DNA of 63,024 nt, from contig JAHFGT010000003.1 of NCBI GenBank assembly GCA_023247275.1, positions 1 to 63,024 on the forward strand, in the 5' to 3' direction. Position 1 is the first letter of the stretch, and each line of letters begins with the position of its first letter. The notes beneath the pieces are model-generated. The model saw nothing but the letters and a program-made list of their open reading frames with translations. It had not been told where the DNA came from and did no database searches. This DNA comes from Candidatus Omnitrophota bacterium. GTDB lineage: Bacteria > Omnitrophota > Gorgyraeia > Aquiviventales > Aquiviventaceae. Position numbers and translations under genes: made by a program. Shown piece after piece: positions 799 through 49,802 of the stretch.

Positions 799-1031
799 GC
801 AACAGCATCATGGCTGACCGACTTCCAACAGCGACTGAACTTCGAGGACTGCCGGCGGCAGACCTGGCAACCCAACTGGACGCGCTGCGCCAGCAACTGT
901 GGCAGGCCCGTATCAAGATTCAGGAGGGCAGCCTTCAGCAAGGGCATCAGATCCGCCTGCTCCGCCGCCAGATGGCCCGTGTCTCGACGGTCCTACAGCA
1001 ACAGCGGAATCAGAAAGGAACCGGTTCATGA
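795..1031 (+). CDS. rpmC: 50S ribosomal protein L29
   Basis: GTG 795 overlaps the rplP stop (alternative ATG 810). Short helical protein located between L16 and S17. Confidence 0.88.
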
Positions 1032-1378
1032 TGTCACAGGTGTTGCCGACCGCCCGAGCCACGCGAAAAGTCCGGGTGGGGGTTGTCGTCAGTAACAAGA
1101 TGCGGAAGACGATTGTGGTGCGAATCCAGCGGTTGGTTCGACATGCGAAATATGCGCGTGTCATTCACCAGACGAATAAGTTCAAGGCGCACGATGAGTC
1201 GAACACCGCGGCCATCGGTGATTGGGTGAGGATTATGGAAACCCGACCGCTGTCCAAGGACAAACGCTGGCGGCTGGTCGAAGTGATTCGTCGCGCATCC
1301 ACCGCGCCACCAGTGCCGGGCATTGAGTCTGAATCAGAACAGTCGGCCAGGCAGAAGAGCAAAGACTCGGCGTCATGA
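1028..1378 (+). CDS. rpsQ: 30S ribosomal protein S17 (with about 30-aa C-terminal tail)
   Basis: ATG 1028 overlaps the rpmC stop (ATGA). Contains [33 protein letters not shown], an S17 OB-fold sequence. Confidence 0.9.
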
Positions 1379-1518
1379 TCCTGCCACCTATGGTTCGTGT
1401 ACAAATGAACAGGTGTCCCAGTGAACAGGTCGTCGGCTGGCGCATCTCGACCACTCGTACGCCCGTACGCCCGTACGCCCGTTTCCGAATCGTCCGGGCA
1501 GCCGAGGTGGTGGAATGA
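1375..1518 (+). CDS. Hypothetical 47-codon ORF filling the rpsQ-rplN gap ([47 protein letters not shown])
   Basis: ATG 1375 overlaps the rpsQ TGA (ATGA). Its TGA at 1516-1518 overlaps the rplN ATG 1515 (ATGA). The frame is open across the whole 144 nt. There is no homology support. Confidence 0.3.
1375..1518 (+). repeat. ATGA-bounded inverted-repeat element, copy A (weaker arms); contains (GTACGCCC)x3 at 1457-1480
   Basis: 5' end is ATGATCCTGCCACCT and 3' end is GAGGTGGTGGAATGA. These are the same end motifs as copies at 32904 and 45506, and the arms are partly complementary. Confidence 0.55.
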
Positions 1519-1883
1519 TCGCCATGCGAACGCAGCTTGACGTCGCTGACAACACCGGCGTCAAGAAAGTGTGGGCGATTGGGGTGATTGGTCGCGGCAA
1601 TAAGCACACCGCGGCCATCGGAGACGTGATCACCGTCCATATTCGCGAAGCCGATCCAGATGCGCTGGCCAAGAAGGGCGAAGTGGTCCGATGCGTGGTC
1701 GTCCGCACCAGGGCACCGATCCGCCGGCTGGATGGGACCACGTTGAAGTTTGATTCGAACGCTGTCGTACTCATCGACCCGCAGAACAACCCACGCGGCA
1801 CCCGTGTCTTTGGGCCAGTCGCACGGGAACTACGCGAAAAGCGGTTCATGAAGATCATCTCGCTGGCCCCAGAAGTGGTCTAA
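1515..1883 (+). CDS. rplN: 50S ribosomal protein L14
   Basis: Starts [24 protein letters not shown].., an L14 signature. Confidence 0.95.
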   Translation: MIAMRTQLDVADNTGVKKVWAIGVIGRGNKHTAAIGDVITVHIREADPDALAKKGEVVRCVVVRTRAPIRRLDGTTLKFDSNAVVLIDPQNNPRGTRVFGPVARELREKRFMKIISLAPEVV

Positions 1884-3417: not shown

Positions 3418-3981
3418 ATGTCACGCATTGGACGTCTTCCGGTCACAATCCCGTCTGCGGTAACCATTCGGCAGGACGGTGCTCGTCTGTTGGTTGAAGG
3501 ACCCAAGGGCAAGCTGTCCGTCACCGTCCCGGAGAGTCTTCGGGTGACGGTCAAGGACCAACGGATGCAGGTTGAGCCGACCGATACGCAGCTGCCGGTC
3601 AAGGCCATGCATGGCCTGTACCGAGCGCTCATCGCCAACATGGTCCGTGGAACGACAGAAGGGTTCTCTCGGGAACTTGAGATTGTTGGCGTCGGGTACC
3701 GAGCTCAGCTTCAAGGCCGGCAACTGACCCTCCATGTGGGCTTCTCGCATCCGGTGGTCGTGCCCATCCCCGAGGGACTCACGATCGACGTGCCAAAACC
3801 AACCACCGTGATCGTTCGTGGCGCTGACAAACAACAGGTCGGTCAATTTGCGGCGAACATCCGGCGGATTGCGCCCCCAGAACCGTACAAGGGCAAGGGG
3901 ATCAAATATCAAGGGGAGCAGATCCGTCGCAAAGCCGGGAAGGCGGCGACCGGGTCTGGCGCAAAGGCGGGTGGCGGATGA
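3418..3981 (+). CDS. rplF: 50S ribosomal protein L6
   Basis: ATG 3418 gives MSRIGRLPVTIP.. Also contains ..YKGKGIKYQGE.. Confidence 0.93.
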   Translation: MSRIGRLPVTIPSAVTIRQDGARLLVEGPKGKLSVTVPESLRVTVKDQRMQVEPTDTQLPVKAMHGLYRALIANMVRGTTEGFSRELEIVGVGYRAQLQGRQLTLHVGFSHPVVVPIPEGLTIDVPKPTTVIVRGADKQQVGQFAANIRRIAPPEPYKGKGIKYQGEQIRRKAGKAATGSGAKAGGG

Positions 3982-4397: not shown

Positions 4398-4922
4398 ATG
4401 GCGCGTGAGCAACGTTTTGGCGCTCGAGACAACCAGGGCGATGGCCCGCAGCTGATCGAGAAACTCATCAGCATTAATCGGGTCGCCAAGGTCCACAAGG
4501 GCGGCAAGCGATTGGCATTTAATGCACTCGCCGTGGTGGGTGACGGGCGCGGTCGGGTCGGCATGGCGCTCGGCAAATCGAACGAAGCGGCTGACGCTAT
4601 TCGCAAAGGATTCCTACAAGCCCAACGTAATATGGTGGCCATCGCCCTCCGGGGCACGACCATTCCGCATGAAATCGTCGGCAGCTCTGACGCGTCCAAA
4701 GTGCTGCTCAAGCCGGCGAGCCCAGGGACTGGGATCATCGCCGGTGGGCCGGTGCGAGCGGTCTGTGAAGCCTGCGGCATTCGCGACATCCTTACCAAGA
4801 GCCTGGGATCCTGCAATGCGGTGAATCTGGTGAAGGCCACGCTCCAAGGGCTCCAAGCGGTTGAAAGTGCTGACACGATCCGCGCACGTCGTCGGCTGGT
4901 TGTTGAGGTCACAGAAAACTAA
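4398..4922 (+). CDS. rpsE: 30S ribosomal protein S5
   Basis: Contains ..[30 protein letters not shown]..; S5 dsRBD signature. Confidence 0.95.
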
Positions 4923-11927: not shown

Positions 11928-13121
11928 ATGGGCAAGAGTTGCGGCATGAACACGCGAACCCTGGCAGACCGTCTACAGGACATTGAAGCGTCTCCGACCC
12001 TTGCTCTAGACCAGGCTGCCAAGGCCTTGGCGAAGGCTGGCAAACCGGTCTTGAACCTCACCGCCGGCGAACCAGATGCTCCGACGCCTGAACATGTCAA
12101 GCAGGCTGGGATACAGGCGATCCAGTCCAATCGCACCACCTATACGCCAGTCGCCGGAATCGCTGAGTTGCGATCCGCCATCACCACGACAGCTCAGCAC
12201 AACTGCGGGGTCGCGTATCAGCCTTCGCAAGTACTGGTGTCCTGCGGCGCGAAGCATTCGCTCTACAATATTTTTCAGACGCTGTGCCAACCTGGCGACG
12301 AGGTCATCATCTTTGCGCCGTACTGGGTCAGCTATCCGCCATTGGTTCGCCTGGCCGGTGCCACACCGATTCTTCTCCCCACGAAAGAATCTGACGGGTT
12401 CATGCCCGACGTCGCGTCCATCCGAGCGGCACTCACCCATTCCACCAAGGCGATCATCCTCAATAGCCCAGGCAATCCAACCGGAGCCGTGATCGACGAA
12501 GCGCGGCTGGCCGAAATCGCAGCGCTCGCACAGACCCACCATCTCGTAGTTGTCACCGATGAGATTTATGACCAGCTGGTCTACCCACCGGCGCGTCATG
12601 TCTCCATCCTCCGCGTCGCCCCAGACCTGGCTGACCAAACCGTGCTGGTCGGCGGAGCGTCAAAGACCTATAGCATGACCGGCTGGCGGATCGGGTATGC
12701 CTTGGGACCCCAACCGTGGATTGAAGCCATGACCGCGCTGCAGAGCCACTCAACGTCCAACCCAACGTCCATCAGCCAGTACGCCGCGCTGGCCGCACTC
12801 ACCGGAGACCAGCAGCCTGTGGTCCGCATGCGGGATGAATTCCATCGACGACGAGATCGTCTGGTCCATGGCTTGAATCGCATTCCTGGATTGCGGTGTT
12901 TTCTGCCTGGCGGAGCCTTCTACGCCTGGTGTAACATTGCCGGACTTGGGCGATCGGCAAAGCAGGTGGCCGCGGAGTGGCTCGAGCAAACCTATGTCGC
13001 CGTCGTGCCAGGTGAAGGGTTCGGGGCAGCGGATTCGGTTCGATTCAGTTTCGCAGCGCCCATCGATGTCATCGATCAAGCCGTGCAGCGGCTGAGCGGC
13101 TGGGCCACCACACACTCGTGA
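11928..13121 (+). CDS. Class I pyridoxal-phosphate aminotransferase (aspartate aminotransferase-like)
   Basis: Contains ..LNLTAGEPD.., ..NSPGNPTG.. and ..GASKTYSMTGWRIGY.. (PLP lysine motif). Confidence 0.85.
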   Translation: MGKSCGMNTRTLADRLQDIEASPTLALDQAAKALAKAGKPVLNLTAGEPDAPTPEHVKQAGIQAIQSNRTTYTPVAGIAELRSAITTTAQHNCGVAYQPSQVLVSCGAKHSLYNIFQTLCQPGDEVIIFAPYWVSYPPLVRLAGATPILLPTKESDGFMPDVASIRAALTHSTKAIILNSPGNPTGAVIDEARLAEIAALAQTHHLVVVTDEIYDQLVYPPARHVSILRVAPDLADQTVLVGGASKTYSMTGWRIGYALGPQPWIEAMTALQSHSTSNPTSISQYAALAALTGDQQPVVRMRDEFHRRRDRLVHGLNRIPGLRCFLPGGAFYAWCNIAGLGRSAKQVAAEWLEQTYVAVVPGEGFGAADSVRFSFAAPIDVIDQAVQRLSGWATTHS

Positions 13122-20679: not shown

Positions 20680-20862
20680 ATGCCACGTGTAGAAGTTCGA
20701 GACGACGAATCGCTCGAAAAAGCTCTTCGGCGCTTCAAGCGCATGCTGGAACGCGAAGGAATCCTCAAAGCGCTCAAGGCCAAAAAGCACTATGAAAAGC
20801 CCAGCGAGCGCAAGCGCCGTGAGCTGCGACAGGCCATTAGCCGTCGTGCCCGCGCTAGCTAG
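20680..20862 (+). CDS. rpsU: 30S ribosomal protein S21
   Basis: Starts MPRVEVRDDESLEKALRRFKR.. Confidence 0.93.
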   Translation: MPRVEVRDDESLEKALRRFKRMLEREGILKALKAKKHYEKPSERKRRELRQAISRRARAS

Positions 20863-20967
20863 TGCCGTTCCAACTCTTCGCGCCGAAACTCACCGAACGG
20901 TACAGCGAACAGTGCTATGGTTCTCCTCATGGGTACGAGTGGTCTGGTTAAATTGGAACGGCACTAG
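20859..20967. repeat. TAG-overlapping inverted repeat R1 (15-bp perfect arms, 79-nt loop)
   Basis: CTAGTGCCGTTCCAA at 20859-20873 pairs with TTGGAACGGCACTAG at 20953-20967. The left arm contains the rpsU TAG stop. A related copy lies at 26129. Confidence 0.6.
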
Positions 20968-21112: not shown

Positions 21113-23719
21113 ATGCCACATTCAGCGTCAGCGTCAACCACCACCCCACGCCAATCGGTCGGCCAGCTGTTGCTTGACAACGGTCTACAGGCCACGTGGG
21201 AAGAGGATCATCGACAGCCGCTGGTCGCCATCGAGGCCAGGATTCAAGGCGGACTACGAGGCGAGGGACGGGACGTCGGGACCGGGATCACCCATTTCAT
21301 TGAGCATATGTTGTTCAAAGGGACACCGACCCGACCGCCAGGATCTATCGATCAAGAGGTGCGGCGATACGGCGGCTCGATCAACGCGTTTACCTCCATG
21401 GATTCGACCGGCGTGTCGCTATTTGTCGAGTCGTCACACCTCAAGGATGGCCTCGCGTTGCTCGCGGATATTCTCCAACATGCCATCTTCGACCAGGCCG
21501 AATTTGACAAGGAACGCGCCGTGGTCCTCTCAGAAATAACGATGAATGAGGACGATCCTGAGCGGACCGTGCACCATCTCTTCTGGAATCGCCATTACCG
21601 GCAGCACTACTACAAACATCCGATCTTGGGCTATCCATCGCTGCTCAAGCAGTTGACGGTCAACGAGATGACCACATTCTACCGGTCACAGTACCAGCCA
21701 CAGAATATCACCGTCGCCTGCGTTGGTGACTTGGATCCTGCGGCAGTGGAGCGCACCATCCGCGACCTGTTTGGGCCTTGGGCGCGTGGAGTCACCGACC
21801 CGCAGCAGCTGTTGGTGCCTGAGGAGCCTCCGACGGTCGGCGCCCTCGAGGCGGTCGATGAGCGTCCGGTGCAGGCGGCCTATGTCATCATGGGATTTTC
21901 ATCGACCCGCCTGGCTGATCCTCAGACGTATCCGCTCGATGTGCTCGCCAACATTTTGGGGCAAGGCCGCAGCTCCCGGCTGTACGAGAGCTTGGTGCGG
22001 CGCCAACAGCTAGTAGAAAGCATTCGTGCATGGAATTACACGCCGCAGGATCGCGGCGTGTTCGGCATTCAGTTCCGCGCGCAGCCGGACAAGACAGCGG
22101 CGGCCAAGGCCGCGGTGCTCGAGATGATCCGAGACGTGCAGCAACATGGCATTACTGAAGCAGAGTTGCAGAAAGCCCAGCGGAGTATCAGCGCAGAGTT
22201 TCTCTTCAATCTGCAAACCATCGAAGGGCGGGCTGGCGACTTGGCCAACTCGCTCGCCAGCACCGGAGACCCGTTGTTCTCTCGTCAATATGTGGATCGG
22301 ATCCGGGCGGTGACCACCGAGCAAGTCCAACAGACCGCTCGGGCGTATTGTCAACCAGCGGTCATGACGACCGCGGTCGTTCGCCCGGGCTCGGCGCCAG
22401 CCGCCCCAACCGCCAAGACGATCGGGCAACCGGTGCAGATGACGCGCACCGTGTTGGGCAATGGGACGACCGCGATCATCGGCGTGGATCACACGCTGCC
22501 GATCGCTGCGGTCGTCGTCGCGTACCGGGGTGGGATCCGGGCCGAGACCGCGAATCAGCAGGGAGTGGCCAACCTCGTCGCCCAATTGCTCACAAAAGGC
22601 ACCGCCAAGCAGACCGCCTCGGACATCGCCCGCCGGGTCGAGTCGCTGGGCGGCAGCCTGGAACCGTTCAGCGGTCGGGATGGATCTGGTCTGGTGCTGC
22701 AATTGTTGGCCCAAGACTGGACCCACGGGGTCGATTTGGTCGATGAACTGGTGACCCAATCGACCTTTCCAGCCGATGAACTGGAGATTCAGCGCCAACT
22801 CATCCTGCAACAGTTGGCAGCGCAGGATGATGACATCTTCGATGTGGGCGGCCGATTACTTCGGTACGCGCTCTTCCCGCATCATCCGTATGGATTTAAC
22901 CCGCTCGGCACAATCGAGACCATCACGCGGATTCGGCGGGAGGACTGCGTGGCCTTCGCCCATCGGTGGATCGCGCCCTCCAACCTGGTGGTGGCGGTCT
23001 TTGGCGACGTGGATTCGGCCGCGGTACAGCAACGACTTGAGCGTTCTGTCGGAAAGATTCCGGCGCGCGCCACCGACTGGCCGGCCAGGCTGGCGGTAGA
23101 ACCGCTCGACACGGTCCGCACCGTCGTGCAGCCGATGCCGCGAGAGCAGGCGCTGATCATGCTGGGATTCCCCGGCAGCACCCACACCGCACCTGACCGG
23201 TATGCGCTGGACGTCACCACGGCTGTCCTGTCCGGCATGGCCGGACGACTGTTCCAGGCGGTGCGTGAGTCCCAGGGACTGTCCTACACCTTAGGAGCGG
23301 CCAACATCCCTGGCTGGGACCCAGGGTATGTGTTGGTGTATGCGGCCACCCGACCAGACGAGCAAGACCGTGTCCTCTCGGTCCTCGAAGAACAGTTACG
23401 CGCGGTCGCGACGACCGGATTCACTCCTGAAGAGATCGATCAGGCCAAGCGGTATCTCATCGGCACACATCGGATGGACATCCAGCACCTGGTGGGTCTG
23501 ACTCGACGATCCGCTATGGACGAGCTGTATGGGCTTCGCTATGACGCATGGACCCGGTACGAGTCGGTCATCAACAGTGTCACCATCGACCAGATCAACG
23601 AGGCCGCGCGCCGATACCTCACGTTGGAGCGACGCGCGCAGGTCGTGGTATCGCCGAACGGGGCGATCCGTCGACCGTCCACAGTGGATGCTCGACAGAC
23701 GACGAGTGTCTCGCCATGA
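21113..23719 (+). CDS. Tandem (two-unit) M16 family zinc peptidase
   Basis: ATG 21113 after SD AAGGAAG (alternative GTG 21059 gives a signal-like LLLVLAIV). HxxEH motif HFIEH. A second M16 repeat follows from about residue 450. Confidence 0.85.
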   Translation: MPHSASASTTTPRQSVGQLLLDNGLQATWEEDHRQPLVAIEARIQGGLRGEGRDVGTGITHFIEHMLFKGTPTRPPGSIDQEVRRYGGSINAFTSMDSTGVSLFVESSHLKDGLALLADILQHAIFDQAEFDKERAVVLSEITMNEDDPERTVHHLFWNRHYRQHYYKHPILGYPSLLKQLTVNEMTTFYRSQYQPQNITVACVGDLDPAAVERTIRDLFGPWARGVTDPQQLLVPEEPPTVGALEAVDERPVQAAYVIMGFSSTRLADPQTYPLDVLANILGQGRSSRLYESLVRRQQLVESIRAWNYTPQDRGVFGIQFRAQPDKTAAAKAAVLEMIRDVQQHGITEAELQKAQRSISAEFLFNLQTIEGRAGDLANSLASTGDPLFSRQYVDRIRAVTTEQVQQTARAYCQPAVMTTAVVRPGSAPAAPTAKTIGQPVQMTRTVLGNGTTAIIGVDHTLPIAAVVVAYRGGIRAETANQQGVANLVAQLLTKGTAKQTASDIARRVESLGGSLEPFSGRDGSGLVLQLLAQDWTHGVDLVDELVTQSTFPADELEIQRQLILQQLAAQDDDIFDVGGRLLRYALFPHHPYGFNPLGTIETITRIRREDCVAFAHRWIAPSNLVVAVFGDVDSAAVQQRLERSVGKIPARATDWPARLAVEPLDTVRTVVQPMPREQALIMLGFPGSTHTAPDRYALDVTTAVLSGMAGRLFQAVRESQGLSYTLGAANIPGWDPGYVLVYAATRPDEQDRVLSVLEEQLRAVATTGFTPEEIDQAKRYLIGTHRMDIQHLVGLTRRSAMDELYGLRYDAWTRYESVINSVTIDQINEAARRYLTLERRAQVVVSPNGAIRRPSTVDARQTTSVSP

Positions 23720-25612: not shown

Positions 25613-26130
25613 ATATTTTGGTGATCCACGGTCCCAACCTGCAGTTGCTCGGCAGTCGCCAACCGGCATTGTATGGCACCGCTGATTTGGCCTCGATCAA
25701 CCGAGAGCTGCACCGGCTGGCGGCCTCCCACCAGGTGATGTTAACGATTGTTCAATCGAATCACGAAGGCGAAATGATCAGCCGAATCGGCGCGGCCCGC
25801 GGACGATGCGACGGTCTGCTGATCAATCCGGCCGGCTATACGCACACCAGCGTCGCACTCCGCGATGCCATCGAGGCCGCTGGAATCGCTGCGGTGGAAG
25901 TCCATCTCTCCAACATCTATGCCCGCGAGCCGTTTCGCCACCAGTCGCTCACCGCCGGCGTCTGCCGCGGCCAAATTTGCGGATTCGGAGCGGCGAGCTA
26001 CCGGCTCGGATTGGAAGCCCTCATTGGGGTGCTGACCGCCAGTCAGACCGCTCAGCGCCCACACCAACCCACCCCCTCCCGGCGCCCAGCACGGGCAGGC
26101 TCGACATCGGCGTCGCGGCGCCGTCGCTAG
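25609..26130 (+). CDS. aroQ: 3-dehydroquinate dehydratase type II (about 25-aa basic C-terminal tail)
   Basis: ATGA overlap with the upstream gene. Contains MNILVIHGPNLQLLGSRQPALYG.., ..QSNHEGE.. and ..NPAGYTHTSVALRDA.. Confidence 0.92.
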   Translation: MNILVIHGPNLQLLGSRQPALYGTADLASINRELHRLAASHQVMLTIVQSNHEGEMISRIGAARGRCDGLLINPAGYTHTSVALRDAIEAAGIAAVEVHLSNIYAREPFRHQSLTAGVCRGQICGFGAASYRLGLEALIGVLTASQTAQRPHQPTPSRRPARAGSTSASRRRR

Positions 26131-26233
26131 TACCGTTCCAACTTGATGCACCTCACGATCCGTTTGGGCAACGGCCAACCGCTCCCACTGAACCGCCCAG
26201 TTGATACGTGGCGTAAATAGTTGGAACGGGACT
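26129..26233. repeat. TAG-overlapping inverted repeat R2 (15-bp arms, 1 mismatch, 75-nt loop)
   Basis: AGTACCGTTCCAACT at 26129-26143 pairs with AGTTGGAACGGGACT at 26219-26233. The left flank GCTAGT(A)CCGTTCCAACT matches R1 at 19 of 20 positions. Confidence 0.5.
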
Positions 26234-26268
26234 CGCACGCAAGGGTGCGTCAGCCATTCCTCGGTCAG

Positions 26269-32289: not shown

Positions 32290-32907
32290 ATGACGCGTGT
32301 CTGGTCCCTGGGGATCACGGCCTGTGCATTGATCACTGGGTGCGCGACCGTTCCGGTCGGCCCAGTGGCTCTTGACTCACCCCCTGTGGTCCGGCCGCTG
32401 CCTCAACTGGCCGGATCTTACCATGTGGTTCAACGCGGTGAAACACTTTGGCGAATCGCACACTCCTATGGCCTTGAGCCGCAGCAATTGGCAGCTGCCA
32501 ACCGCCTGCGAAGCACCGTACCCGTCAGATCCGGGCAACGATTGTTCGTTCCGCTGCCGCCTGAGACATTGGCATTTCTTTGGCCGGTCCGTGGGACCGT
32601 TCGGAGCGCCGGATCAACCCATGGGGTCAAAATCAGCGCGTCGCCAGGTAGCTTGGTGCGCGCCTCCCGAAGTGGTCAAGTTGCTGTCGCAGCGCAGCAG
32701 CTCGCCGGCTGGGGCAGGACCGTGGTGTTGGACCATCTTGACGGACATTTGACCGTGTATGCTGGCCTGGATCAAATCTTGGTCAGCCCTGGCGTTACCT
32801 TGCGCCAGGGCACCCCACTCGGAACCATCGGCCTGCAGGCGATGCATTTCGAAATCCGGTATGGGGCCACACCGAAGAACACCCTGGCGTATTTGCCATC
32901 GGAATGA
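32290..32907 (+). CDS. NlpD-like lipoprotein: LysM plus degenerate M23 (LytM) domain
   Basis: Lipobox LITGC. LysM motif YHVVQRGETLWRIAHSYG. The M23 region lacks the HxxxD Asp (THGVKI) and the first His of HxH (AMHFE). Confidence 0.85.
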   Translation: MTRVWSLGITACALITGCATVPVGPVALDSPPVVRPLPQLAGSYHVVQRGETLWRIAHSYGLEPQQLAAANRLRSTVPVRSGQRLFVPLPPETLAFLWPVRGTVRSAGSTHGVKISASPGSLVRASRSGQVAVAAQQLAGWGRTVVLDHLDGHLTVYAGLDQILVSPGVTLRQGTPLGTIGLQAMHFEIRYGATPKNTLAYLPSE

Positions 32908-33041
32908 TCCCACCACCTGCGGCGGCTGCCAACGGCAGCCCTGCAACTGAAGGAATTGCAAGGAAGGTTGTCATGAGCACTCATCAACGAAGTCGTTGCA
33001 GTGCCACGCCGCCGGCGTGGCAGCCGCAGGTGGTGGGATGA
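32904..33041 (+). repeat. ATGA-bounded inverted-repeat element, copy B (17 + 5 bp terminal helix)
   Basis: Positions 32907-32923 pair perfectly with 33023-33039; after a 3-nt bulge, 32927-32931 pair with 33018-33022. The left ATGA contains the upstream stop and the right ATGA contains the downstream start. The whole element is one open 45-codon frame. Confidence 0.7.
32973..33041 (+). CDS. 22-aa upstream ORF (MSTHQRSRCSATPPAWQPQVVG), translationally coupled to the ATPase gene
   Basis: SD AGGAAGG lies 5 nt before ATG 32973. Its stop TGA at 33039-33041 overlaps ATG 33038. It is in frame with ATG 32904. Confidence 0.3.
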   Translation: MSTHQRSRCSATPPAWQPQVVG

Positions 33042-44216: not shown

Positions 44217-44306
44217 CTCAGTCAACAGTCGACAGTCTTCAGCCCACAGCGAACACTGTACGCACTCTGTCGACTGTCGACTGTTAACTGTGAACCCTCG
44301 ACTGCA
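44217..44306. repeat. Paired heptanucleotide tandem arrays (NNCAGTC)x5-6 and (GACTGTN)x4-6 forming a 19-bp inverted repeat
   Basis: First array: CTCAGTC AACAGTC GACAGTC TTCAGCC CACAGCG. Second array: CTCTGTC GACTGTC GACTGTT AACTGTG. Positions 44219-44237 pair with 44272-44290 with one mismatch. Confidence 0.7.
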
Positions 44307-44308
44307 CG

Positions 44309-45418
44309 ATGACACTTCGCCGTCGTTCTCGGCGAGTCTCGCAGTCCAACGCATGGCCTGGAGTCATTGAGGCCTACCGCAGCTATCTGCCGGTTTCTGC
44401 AACGACACCGATCATCTCGTTGTTGGAAGGCAACACGCCGCTAATCTACAGCCGCCAGTTGAGCCAGGCGATTGGCCCGCGAGCTCAGGTGTACCTCAAG
44501 TATGAGGGGATGAACCCAACCGGGTCATTCAAAGATCGTGGCATGACGCTGGCGATTTCAAAAGCGGTCGAAGCCAAGTCGGTCGCAGTGTTGTGCGCGT
44601 CGACCGGGAACACGTCAGCCGCCGCCAGCGCGTACGCCGCGCGCGCCGGGCTGCGATCGATCGTGCTCATTCCGAGCGGCAACATTGCGCTCGGTAAGCT
44701 GTCGCAAGCGCTGATCCATGGCGCAAAGGTGGCACCGGTCGAGGCCAACTTCGATGCCTGCTTGGCCCTCGCCAAATCGCTGGTGAACAACCATCCGATC
44801 ACGCTGGTCAACTCGATCAACCCGTATCGGATCGAAGGTCAGAAGACCTGCGCGTTTGAAATTTGTGACGCGCTGGGGCAGGCCCCGGATTACCACTTCA
44901 CGCCGGTGGGCAACGCCGGCAATATCACCGCGCAGTGGAAAGGATACAAGGAATACCGGCAGCACCGAAAGATCGACCGGCTGCCAGTCATGCTGGGGTT
45001 TCAAGCCGAGGGCGCCGCCCCCATCGTCCATGGCGCGGTTGTGAAGAACCCGAAGACGATCGCGACCGCGATCCGAATCGGCAACCCAGCCAGTTGGCAG
45101 GGCGCGTTGACCGCGACTCAAGAATCAGAGGGGGCCATCCAGGCGGTCTCCGACGCTCAAATCCTCGAGGCCTATCGGCTGTTGGCCAACCATGATGGCG
45201 TGTTCGCCGAACCAGCGTCGGCCGCATCGGTGGCCGGCTTGCTGCAATTGGCCCGAACCGGCTATTTTACCAGCCGCAAGAAACGGCAGACCACCGTTGT
45301 CTGTATTCTGACCGGCCATGGCCTCAAGGACCCTGGGTGTGCCATTGACAGCATTACGATGCCGAAGCCGCTGCCGCCGTCATTGTCCGCCGTGAGCAAA
45401 GCGGTTGGACTCGGTTAG
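44309..45418 (+). CDS. thrC: Threonine synthase
   Basis: Contains ..LLEGNTPLI.. and ..KYEGMNPTGSFKDRGMT.. (PLP lysine). Confidence 0.93.
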   Translation: MTLRRRSRRVSQSNAWPGVIEAYRSYLPVSATTPIISLLEGNTPLIYSRQLSQAIGPRAQVYLKYEGMNPTGSFKDRGMTLAISKAVEAKSVAVLCASTGNTSAAASAYAARAGLRSIVLIPSGNIALGKLSQALIHGAKVAPVEANFDACLALAKSLVNNHPITLVNSINPYRIEGQKTCAFEICDALGQAPDYHFTPVGNAGNITAQWKGYKEYRQHRKIDRLPVMLGFQAEGAAPIVHGAVVKNPKTIATAIRIGNPASWQGALTATQESEGAIQAVSDAQILEAYRLLANHDGVFAEPASAASVAGLLQLARTGYFTSRKKRQTTVVCILTGHGLKDPGCAIDSITMPKPLPPSLSAVSKAVGLG

Positions 45419-45467: not shown

Positions 45468-45496
45468 TTGGCGTCGACTCGGTTCCCGAGTATAAT
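45468..45496 (+). promoter_or_regulatory. Putative sigma70-type promoter
   Basis: TTGGCG-N17-TATAAT. The predicted transcript start falls just 5' of the left arm of element copy C. Confidence 0.45.
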
Positions 45497-45505
45497 GAGT
45501 GATTC

Positions 45506-45668
45506 ATGATCCCACCACCTGTCGCTTGAGCCGGCTCAGTGGTCAGCACGCCAGGCTGGCTCAAGATCGCCAACAAGACAACGAAGGTTGCACGGGATGA
45601 CGAATACAAAGAGTGCTCGCCGGGGCGATCAGCCCGCCATCGGCGGGCTGCAACAGGTGGTGGGATGA
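45506..45668 (+). repeat. ATGA-bounded inverted-repeat element, copy C (14-bp terminal helix)
   Basis: Positions 45509-45522 pair perfectly with 45653-45666. Both end motifs are identical to copy B: ATGATCCCACCACCTG and CAGGTGGTGGGATGA. Inner hairpins: 45525-45532 with 45558-45565, and 45630-45638 with 45642-45650. Confidence 0.65.
45597..45668 (+). CDS. 23-aa upstream ORF ([23 protein letters not shown]), coupled to the apgM-like gene
   Basis: SD GAAGG lies 9 nt before ATG 45597. Its stop TGA at 45666-45668 overlaps ATG 45665. Confidence 0.3.
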   Translation: MTNTKSARRGDQPAIGGLQQVVG

Positions 45669-48148: not shown

Positions 48149-49765
48149 ATGTCTGTGATCGAACTGTATGACACCACGCTCCGCGATGGAGCGCAGACCG
48201 AAGGGATTTCCTACTCGGTGCAGGATAAACTGCGAATCACCGAGAAGCTGGACGCCCTTGGGCTGCACACCATCGAAGGGGGCTGGCCGCTCAACCCGAA
48301 AGATGCCCAGTTTTTCCGTCAAGCTCGTCAGTTACGCCTGACCGCTCGGCTGGCCGCATTTGGCAGCACGCGACGGGCTGCCACCCCTGCGGCAGACCCG
48401 AATCTGAAATCGCTGCTTGCGGCCGAGACCAAGATCGTGACGATTTTCGGCAAGAGCTGGGACCTGCATGTGCGCGATGTGCTCAATATCAGCCTCGATA
48501 ACAACCTTCGCGTCATTGAGGACTCTGTCGCGTTTCTGAAGAAGCGTGGACGCACGGTGGTCTATGATGCTGAGCATTTCTTTGACGGGTACAAGGACAA
48601 CGCCGCGTACGCGCTCAAGACGCTGCAGGCCGCAGTGGCCGGAGGCGCTCAAACACTCGTGCTGTGCGACACCAACGGCGGCAGCCTGCCGACCGAGATC
48701 ACCGCCATCATCCACACGGCGAAGCGCGCCGTCTGGGTGCCGCTGGGAATCCACACGCACAATGACAGCGAACTGGCAGTCGCGAATGCGATCGCCGCGG
48801 TGCAGGCCGGGTGCCGACAGGTGCAGGGGACAATCAACGGGTATGGCGAACGGTGCGGTAATGCCAACCTCGTTTCCGTCATCGCGATCTTGAAAGTCAA
48901 ACTCGGGATCAACTGCCTGCCGGATGCGAAGCTGAAGGAACTCACTGAGGTCTCGCGCTACGTTGCTGAATTGAGCAACATGGCCCAACACGCGAACCAG
49001 CCATTCGTCGGCGCGGCCGCGTTTGCGCACAAGGGCGGGGTGCATGTCAACGCGGTGCTAAAAAATCCGCGGACGTACGAGCATCTTGAGCCGGCCATGG
49101 TCGGCAATGAGCGGAAGATTCTCGTGTCCGAACTGTCTGGTCGCTCATCGCTGGTGTTCAAAGCCAAGGACCTGGCGCTGGATCTGTCGAAGAACACCCC
49201 GCAGGCGAAACGGCTGCTGAAGCTGTTGCAGAATTTGGAGCATCGCGGCTACCACTTTGAAGCGGCTGAGGGGTCGCTCGAGCTGCTGCTGAAGCGGCAG
49301 TTGAAACAGTTCGCGCCGTTTTTCACGCTGGAAGGGTTTCGGATCATCATGGAAAAGCGGGACCACCGGCTGGTCTCCGAAGCCACGGTCAAGCTGCATG
49401 TCAACGGCGTGCGCGAGCAGACCGTGGCTGAAGGGGATGGGCCGGTCAACGCGCTGGACAACGCCATCCGTAAAGCGCTCAACCGGTTTTACCCGGCGCT
49501 GGCGCAGATGCACCTGACCGACTTCAAGGTGCGGGTGCTCGATGAGAAGGCCGGCACCGCGGCGAAAGTGCGCGTATTGATCCAGTCGCAAGATCCGCAT
49601 GAGTCCTGGGGCACTGTCGGCGTGTCCGAGAATATCATCGAAGCCAGTTGGCAGGCGCTCGTGGATTCGATCGAATACAAACTGCTGAAGGATCAGAAGA
49701 CAGAGGGCAGAGGACAGAAGTCAGTAAAAATACGAAAGACGAAGGCGTTGCCTCGGTCCTCATGA
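48149..49765 (+). CDS. cimA: (R)-citramalate synthase (LeuA/CimA family); 3' tail is encoded by a repeat array
   Basis: ATG 48149 gives MSVIELYDTTLRDGAQTEG.. Contains ..HTHNDSELAVAN.. and has the C-terminal regulatory domain. Confidence 0.85.
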   Translation: MSVIELYDTTLRDGAQTEGISYSVQDKLRITEKLDALGLHTIEGGWPLNPKDAQFFRQARQLRLTARLAAFGSTRRAATPAADPNLKSLLAAETKIVTIFGKSWDLHVRDVLNISLDNNLRVIEDSVAFLKKRGRTVVYDAEHFFDGYKDNAAYALKTLQAAVAGGAQTLVLCDTNGGSLPTEITAIIHTAKRAVWVPLGIHTHNDSELAVANAIAAVQAGCRQVQGTINGYGERCGNANLVSVIAILKVKLGINCLPDAKLKELTEVSRYVAELSNMAQHANQPFVGAAAFAHKGGVHVNAVLKNPRTYEHLEPAMVGNERKILVSELSGRSSLVFKAKDLALDLSKNTPQAKRLLKLLQNLEHRGYHFEAAEGSLELLLKRQLKQFAPFFTLEGFRIIMEKRDHRLVSEATVKLHVNGVREQTVAEGDGPVNALDNAIRKALNRFYPALAQMHLTDFKVRVLDEKAGTAAKVRVLIQSQDPHESWGTVGVSENIIEASWQALVDSIEYKLLKDQKTEGRGQKSVKIRKTKALPRSS

Positions 49766-49802
49766 TCCCTTCTGTCCTCTGACTTCTGTCCTCTGACCTC
49801 TG
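49691..49802. repeat. Paired heptanucleotide arrays (NNNCAGA)x5 and (NNYTCTG)x5 flanking the cimA stop
   Basis: First array: GATCAGA AGACAGA GGGCAGA GGACAGA AGTCAGT. Second array: CCTTCTG TCCTCTG ACTTCTG TCCTCTG ACCTCTG. There is a 17-nt perfect complement, CAGAGGACAGAAGTCAG. Confidence 0.7.

Follow-up and report, generated by a model that had tools for sequence, protein, structure and literature searches.

What is known of mycobacterial interspersed repetitive units (MIRUs) offers a natural point of comparison for the DNA considered here: MIRUs are described as inserting at start codons and carrying an internal open reading frame (ORF) coupled at -4 nt, with the effect on the host gene minimized (PMC12548453, citing Supply 1997). 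More generally, ATGA overlaps of stop and start codons support termination-reinitiation coupling (PMC6728339, PMC12548453). The DNA in question is a 63,024-nucleotide stretch of Candidatus Omnitrophota bacterium (GenBank assembly GCA_023247275.1, contig JAHFGT010000003.1, positions 1 to 63,024), referred to below in its entirety as the window, in which an insert separates the ribosomal protein genes rpsQ and rplN. We propose, with good though not complete confidence, that this insert, called copy A, is an eroded copy of a family of nonautonomous start-codon palindromes that resemble MITEs (miniature transposable elements with inverted repeats), and that the open frame of these elements relays ribosomes to the host gene.

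Like MIRUs, the Omnitrophota element is a short repeat that sits in operons at start codons, with an internal ORF that overlaps the flanking genes by 4 nt, and for both, the expression of the host gene is thought to remain nearly unchanged via translational coupling (for MIRUs, PMC12548453). This overlap with flanking stop and start codons, an ATGA at both ends, is found in copy A and in most family members. MIRUs are 46- to 101-bp direct units, often in tandem, that occur in Actinobacteria and are not known to have long terminal inverted repeats or a four-way junction. In contrast, the Omnitrophota element is a single palindrome with inverted ends and a 3-bp duplication, and the tandem arrays found in the family consist of whole palindromes; here the MIRU is set apart by its description. 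The likeness, here in a true inverted-repeat element, suggests convergent evolution. Compared with ATGA coupling itself, the element creates two consecutive overlaps, which would amount to a known process run twice with the middle ORF supplied by a mobile element.

Other described repeats share different subsets of these features. Rickettsia palindromic elements (RPEs) are also palindromic selfish elements of about 100 to 150 bp that survive in essential regions by means of an open frame, but they lie inside genes, as in-frame fusions with a conserved peptide (PMC10969869, PMC2229807), whereas the core plus duplication of the Omnitrophota element is 2 mod 3 in length, its ORF is its own and stands between genes, and its peptide is not conserved. 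Classical MITEs (Correia/NEMIS, ERIC, RUP, and YPAL) have terminal inverted repeats, a target duplication, a length of 100 to 200 bp, and many copies, and their transcripts are strongly folded and cotranscribed with neighboring genes (PMC2229807). They are mostly AT-rich, however, with TA ends or duplications, one long hairpin, and no start-codon or frame rule (PMC2229807), in contrast to the GC-rich Omnitrophota element with its TGA duplication, four-way junction, start-codon position (83 of 91 copies), and frame bias. Repetitive extragenic palindromic (REP) sequences, BIMEs, and REPINs are likewise GC-rich palindromes between cotranscribed genes in which structure is conserved above sequence, but REPs are 20 to 40 nt long and bear GTAG or CGTC tags (PMC3733652). 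Neither tag is seen in the Omnitrophota element. REPs are not known to duplicate a target and depend on RAYT for their movement, and neither of these traits is seen here. What the Omnitrophota element shares with MITEs as a class is terminal inverted repeats, a target duplication, a small multicopy form without a transposase gene, and both filled and empty sites. Full-text literature searches found no such Omnitrophota element and no MITEs at ATGA overlaps, and the repeat family appears to be undescribed, in a poorly known, uncultured phylum.

A family of palindromes and its insertion sites

The end motifs occur in perfect form at two further places in the window, 32904/33027 and 45506/45654, in the arrangement ATGA-TCCCACCACCTG...CAGGTGGTGGGA-TGA; a preliminary description of the window, made from the sequence alone, had already assigned the ends of copy A to the same motif as these two copies, and the recurrence holds. 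A scan for the pattern TCCCACCACCTG-N(105-135)-CAGGTGGTGGGA, with one genome per species, returned 84 stretches from about 20 metagenome-assembled genomes (MAGs), all of them labeled Omnitrophota/Omnitrophica, "Planctomycetales," or Auribacterota, and there were no matches to the same end pattern in viral contigs. The scan loci and the window together gave a set of 91 distinct exact-end copies, with cores of 110 to 160 nt, to which the family counts below refer.

The ends of these copies are 12-nt terminal inverted repeats, TCCCACCACCTG and CAGGTGGTGGGA. Pairing continues for 4 bp past the repeats, where the bases covary (CG, GC, TA, and AT are each seen at each position), and stops at position 17, such that the closing stem comprises 16 bp. 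Inside this stem, minimum free energy (MFE) folds show three branches, that is, a four-way junction, in 74 of the 91 copies versus 31% of shuffled interiors, and the family interiors are more stable than their shuffles (median z = -3.2). Copies at L009:81-239 and 3744-3903, L028:3915-4071, L054:1402-1553, and L064:5647-5796 (L numbers are our handles for collected loci) also have these 12-nt ends and resemble the others in junction layout, but their interiors are AT-rich and mostly filled with stops, which indicates that the ends are conserved independently of the ORF.

The 3-bp flanks are identical on the left and right. The pair is TGA..TGA in 81 of 90 copies, and other pairs are TAA..TAA, CGA..CGA, TGG..TGG, and TAG..TAG, both sides always matching. 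We read these flanks as a target-site duplication. A 3-bp TNA-like duplication resembles that of an IS5/Harbinger-type (DDE) enzyme, by analogy only, and we infer that a transposase would be the mover of the element.

The junction between rpsQ and rplN itself was compared in relatives found via the L14 protein, a comparison that the preliminary description had proposed. In nine relatives (L085, L086, L089, L090, L092, L097, L098, L099, and L111), the two genes meet in a bare ATGA overlap with no insert, and one of these (L098) has the same MIAMRT start of L14 as the window. Four further relatives have short, nonoverlapping spacers. Two carry intact elements at this junction, one of 146 nt (L087) and a different one of 110 nt (L088), the latter sharing 85% identity with a copy elsewhere in its MAG; this pair points to spread within a genome. 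Finally, only the 3' end of an element is present in L091, as a remnant. The occurrence of filled, empty, and remnant sites makes the rpsQ-rplN junction a recurrent target, and the insert in the window is one such event.

Several of these loci show additional features. In L091 (1440-1503), the S17 ORF runs into the element remnant and ends in ...GQALGVVG* at a TGA that overlaps rplN; the element-derived sequence is the C-terminal tail of S17 in this genome. S17 tails beyond APPVPG are long and very variable across the clade. Elements stand at three junctions of one ribosomal protein operon in L087, before rpsQ (1-137), between rpsQ and rplN (488-633), and between rplX and rplE (1313-1466), the third copy being out of frame and having compensatory ends (CCCC.../...GGGG). 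Directly before rpsQ in L005 (1313-1360) is a half element, with the left repeat ATGATCCCACCACCTGTTGC... only and no right partner, which is decay by deletion. Elsewhere, elements stand in tandem, head to tail, with one TGA/TCA common to neighbors (L016:3136-3436 and 4468-4635, L013:63-342, and L002:3827-4106), an arrangement that points to successive insertions at the ATGA that an earlier copy had rebuilt.

Position and frame of the proposed relay ORF

Where the family sits relative to genes is strongly patterned. In 83 of the 91 copies, the terminal ATG of the element opens a long ORF, and in 67 of them, the first TGA closes one, each count being taken over all 91; the 15 nt upstream of the first ATG are rich in G at positions -5 to -15, as is usual for a ribosome-binding site. 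The target is therefore the start codon, between its A and the TGA, and very often an ATGA stop/start overlap.

The length of the element is equally patterned. Of the 91 cores, 66 have a length of 2 mod 3 (p = 3e-14), and because the in-frame cores fall into 12 different length classes, from 110 to 158, this bias is not explicable by shared ancestry. A 2-mod-3 core places the first ATG and the last TGA in one frame, and 64 of the 66 such cores are without an internal stop. As controls, the other frame or flipped cores are open in 42 to 47% of cases, and shuffled interiors gave a mean of 28/66 and a maximum of 42/66. The bias survives grouping of the copies into 51 sequence clusters, with 33 clusters in frame (p = 8e-6) and 32 open. 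The ORF is therefore maintained, and the same statistics point to its translation and to coupling of termination with reinitiation as its probable role.

The insert between rpsQ and rplN

The section of the ribosomal protein operon in the window comprises rplP, rpmC, rpsQ, rplN, rplX, rplE, and onward. The unusual insert that drew attention to it is as first reported: the spacer (1379-1514) is 136 nt long and is filled exactly by a single ORF of 47 codons, whose ATG at 1375 overlaps the rpsQ TGA and whose TGA at 1516-1518 overlaps the rplN ATG at 1515, an ATGA at each end. The rpsQ stop codon (TGA, 1376-1378) is the left copy of the duplicated target, and the rplN start codon consists of the last A of the right repeat plus the TG of the duplicated target. 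The coordinates of these features are collected in Table 1.

Table 1. Features of the rpsQ-rplN junction and of the intact copies of the element in the window
Feature	Positions	Strand	Basis and remarks
rpsQ (S17)	1028..1378	+	ORF list; Pfam Ribosomal_S17 on identical contig L165
Relay ORF of copy A	1375..1518	+	47 codons; no Pfam family; fits the frame and openness rule of the family
rplN (L14)	1515..1883	+	Pfam Ribosomal_L14; insertion took place at its start codon
Copy A core	1379..1515	+	137 nt (2 mod 3), decayed; loose end scan; fold z = -1.35
Degenerate left terminal inverted repeat TCCTGCCACCTA (consensus TCCCACCACCTG)	1379..1390	+	
Degenerate right terminal inverted repeat GAGGTGGTGGAA (consensus CAGGTGGTGGGA)	1504..1515	+	
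Right copy of duplicated target TGA	1516..1518	+	Stop codon of relay ORF
Microsatellite (GTACGCCC)x3 within copy A	1457..1480	+	24 nt; frame preserved
Copy B	32904..33041	+	Intact; core 32908-33038, 131 nt; open 45-codon relay ORF MIPPP...QVVG
Copy C	45506..45668	+	Intact; core 45510-45665, 156 nt, 0 mod 3

How secure is the assignment of copy A to the family? A loose end scan recovers atgaTCCTGCCACCTA...GAGGTGGTGGAAtgat here, with 3+2 mismatches and a length of 137 nt; the ends thus retain 9/12 and 10/12 consensus bases, plus both TGA flanks, and the 3' 18 nt match copy B at 17/18 positions. By our own arithmetic, the joint probability of such end matches against two TGA flanks is about 1e-8, and the loose scan of 0.93 Mb gave a few chance end pairs, none of them with TGA flanks. 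In the rest of the interior, no similarity to any other copy is detectable. The fold (MFE -53 kcal/mol) is no better than that of shuffles (z = -1.35), and the arms pair weakly, in line with the earlier remark that they pair less well than those of the other two copies (z = -7.6 for copy B and -7.3 for copy C). Copy A represents an old and eroded member of a mobile palindromic family, and the locus itself is a relic. The triple repeat already noted at 1457-1480 was recovered by Tandem Repeats Finder (period 8, 3.4 copies, 100% matches, 1456-1482); it is a later addition, and its 24-nt length is fortuitous.

The insert region is identical in two further assemblies, and one contig of a DNA run spans it, which shows it to be real DNA and not an assembly artifact. 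Contigs with an identical L14 or an identical 47-amino-acid peptide are 100% identical over the insert and are thus uninformative on its evolution. The contigs of DNA run X1 break within copy A at its GTACGCCC repeat, one ending at 1480 and its successor beginning at 1482.

The two intact copies differ in their settings. Copy B follows an M23/LysM peptidase gene (stop TGA 32905-32907) and precedes one for an AAA ATPase (ATG 33038). Copy C precedes a phosphoglycerate-mutase-like gene (ATG 45665), and its ORF closes after 7 codons (45506-45529); upstream, no gene ends at its first TGA, the gene thrC ending at 45418. A promoter-like site, TTGGCG-17-TATAAT, is present at 45468-45496, ending 9 nt before the copy C ATG, and the short ORF of copy C may lie on a nearly leaderless transcript. 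In the DNA runs, there is no empty allele at copies A, B, or C, and the apparent "joints" are other copies with common ends and different interiors; reads of the source metagenome cover the ends of copy B to about 17 times the depth of its flanks.

A model for ribosome relay

Based on the observations outlined above, we propose a mechanism in which the element would insert between the A and the TGA of a start codon that is followed by A, leaving the upstream gene its stop codon. The ribosome-binding site and ATG of the host gene would now open a short ORF inside the element (MIPPP...), and the last A of the element plus the duplicated TGA would restore an ATGA before the host gene, whose initiation region would become the 3' strand of the 16-bp GC-rich stem. 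Given an open in-frame ORF, ribosomes could read through the element, unwind the stem, come to a stop at the restored ATGA, and initiate again on the host gene, with the peptide as a by-product of the relay. From frame-breaking copies, ribosomes would be let go at other places or enter the host gene in the wrong frame, and such copies would be purged from sensitive sites. Such losses would account for an ORF that is kept while the peptide is not, and for a copy A frame that is kept despite its eroded structure. Ribosome cover over the insert might also avoid polarity. The preliminary description had offered, as one of two possibilities, a structured coupling element inserted into a core operon; that reading is essentially right and is also incomplete, as copy A is one eroded copy of a mobile family with target duplication, and its structure is largely decayed.

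Several observations weigh against this model, both as to relay and as to mobility. In approximately 30% of copies, the ORF is closed or the frame is broken, and intact genes nonetheless follow (copy C is an example); relay translation is thus not strictly required. Open copies have an upstream coupled ORF in 51/64 cases versus 16/27 for the rest, a modest enrichment. Among copies read individually from MAGs taken to be low in GC, both copies in L009 and those in L028, L064, and L080 are closed or out of frame, and those in L054 and L072 are open. In RNA runs of the same study, sampled words of the region were not found. With regard to mobility, no end pair 0.2 to 4 kb apart encloses a transposase in the 0.93 Mb of collected loci, and when a long element bounded by these ends and by matching 3-bp flanks was sought there, only adjacent small copies that bracket genes came up; with no autonomous partner found there, the case for mobility comes entirely from the duplications and empty sites. 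An exact-end pattern was used for collection, which overstates end conservation. Finally, end variants often alter both arms jointly, as in TCCCACGCCCTG/CAGGGCGTGGGA and CCCCACCACCTG/CAGGTGGTGGGG. Compensatory changes of this kind would be unexpected for simple transposase-binding sites and suggest that it is the pairing that is preserved or that each arm serves to correct the other.

Alternative explanations

The last of these points bears on a reading, beyond that of passive selfish DNA, that we regard as unlikely, namely, that the family is either a start-codon-homing element with an undescribed mode of transposition or recombination, given its four-way junction and TGA target, or a co-opted, genome-wide coupling module that depends on elongation factor P (EF-P) or on upstream translation, given MIPPP and the buried start codon. 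If the element homes as Holliday-junction-like DNA, compensatory changes in the terminal repeats would follow.

Could the family instead have been domesticated outright as a regulatory coupling module, in which a MIPPP polyproline stall confers dependence on EF-P or on upstream translation and the ends are kept for that function and not for transposition? The ends are indeed conserved over MAGs with interiors from GC-rich to AT-rich, the stem is preserved by compensatory changes, the ORF is maintained, and some end variants, such as TCCCCCCACCTG, are synonymous for PPP. However, occupancy is patchy and differs among close relatives, copies decay (copy A, the L005 half copy, and the L091 remnant), PPP is broken by end variants in copy A (MILPP) and L094 (MIPRP), the copies read from low-GC MAGs are mostly closed, and the host genes have no functional link. 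We judge domestication to be improbable.

A cis-regulatory RNA of the ribosomal protein operon, for example, an autoregulatory leader for L14 and downstream genes, might be expected from the location within that operon, from the very stable folds of intact members, and from the start codon at the foot of the stem. Yet the element precedes unrelated genes (AAA ATPase, phosphoglycerate-mutase-like, and many others), most relatives have no element at rpsQ-rplN, and copy A at this very site has lost any exceptional fold. The strands also do not behave as those of an RNA motif. Folding energies of sense and antisense are equal (-87.6 versus -87.2 kcal/mol, p = 0.53), such that RNA-specific wobble pairing is unsupported; stem mismatches of the G:T and A:C types are similar in number (14 versus 21); and the interior of L007 is flipped relative to those of L027, L042, and L046 in other genomes. 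Taken together, these three results favor a palindrome at the DNA level over a strand-specific RNA motif. No strand-specific covariation restricted to the copies in ribosomal protein operons was seen. Rfam searches of the whole window at the gathering score returned tRNAs only, and for copies A and B at an E-value threshold, they returned far sub-threshold hairpin matches only, with nothing relevant. A regulatory RNA of this kind is thus very improbable.

The other possibility raised in the preliminary description was a new small basic protein, such as a ribosome-associated peptide made with S17 and L14. In its favor, the 47-codon ORF is open and ATGA coupled at both ends, gene calling on the identical contig L165 included it, and its GC by codon position (0.62/0.51/0.66, from 48 codons only) resembles that of the neighboring genes. 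Against it, nine close relatives lack the ORF and have rpsQ and rplN in direct overlap, and at the same site in other genomes, the interiors are unrelated. The family as a whole also does not evolve as a protein would: peptides have in common only their repeat-encoded ends (MIPPP.../...QVVG), differences between related copies are spread evenly over the codon positions (271:260:222), codon changes are nonsynonymous in 386 cases versus synonymous in 72, and GC by codon position is flat (0.67/0.67/0.70), in contrast to real genes here, which dip to 0.43-0.54 at position 2. The peptides of copies A and B, the two tested, have no match in Pfam. To judge from these patterns, the peptide is unconstrained and the relay ORF is not a protein gene; that the 47 codons encode a genuine protein is scarcely credible, and this part of the preliminary description does not stand.

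A chance ORF in an ordinary lineage-specific spacer has next to no probability: short open frames are common in GC-rich DNA, and about 43% of shuffled interiors are open, but both ends match the family repeats, set exactly against TGA flanks, the length fits the 2-mod-3 rule, and the same junction is filled by intact elements in two relatives and empty in nine.

Some further candidates were considered and rejected. Read-through of the first TGA, as with a selenocysteine insertion sequence (SECIS), fails because the frames do not connect, and neither ribosome hopping nor RNA excision predicts the frame and stop bias. A small ribozyme is not supported by conserved junction nucleotides or by an Rfam match, both of which are lacking. 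In integron attC sites, an imperfect palindrome that lies downstream of a cassette ORF is bounded by the core sites RYYYAAC and GTTRRRY (R''/R'); the ends here, TCCCACC/GGTGGGA, have the wrong core, and the elements are found between core genes (rpsQ and rplN, for instance).

Implications and other repeats in the window

If our model is correct, a selfish element can colonize even ribosomal protein operons, because the stop codon is duplicated, the start codon is rebuilt, and a throw-away ORF is kept open, which lets translational coupling survive. The family offers a clean statistical signature of selection for translatability and, independently, a second case of what has been proposed for mycobacterial MIRUs, here in a true inverted-repeat element. 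There are also practical consequences. Gene callers will list relay ORFs as hypothetical small proteins, as happened with copy A; element remnants can become tails of real proteins, as in the S17 tail of L091; and the repeats can break assemblies. Depth spikes are present at the ends of copies B and C in all runs, and assemblies are fragmented by these repeats.

By a criterion of long open frames, which does not amount to confirmed gene pairs, the window contains about 17 candidate empty ATGA overlaps and two occupied ones. Weak end matches at 12130/13151, 24001, and 23480-23650 lie inside ordinary coding sequence without TGA flanks and are due to chance. The window also holds repeats of other kinds. 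An unrelated, second type of inverted-repeat pair, CTAGTGCCGTTCCAA...TTGGAACGGCACTAG, occurs twice (20859-20967 and 26126-26236), with arms about 75 to 80 nt apart. Long inverted repeats made of short reiterated units (CAGAGGACAGAAG-like and CAGTCGACAG-like) are found at 49693-49802 and 44219-44290, the latter where two ORFs meet, just upstream of thrC.

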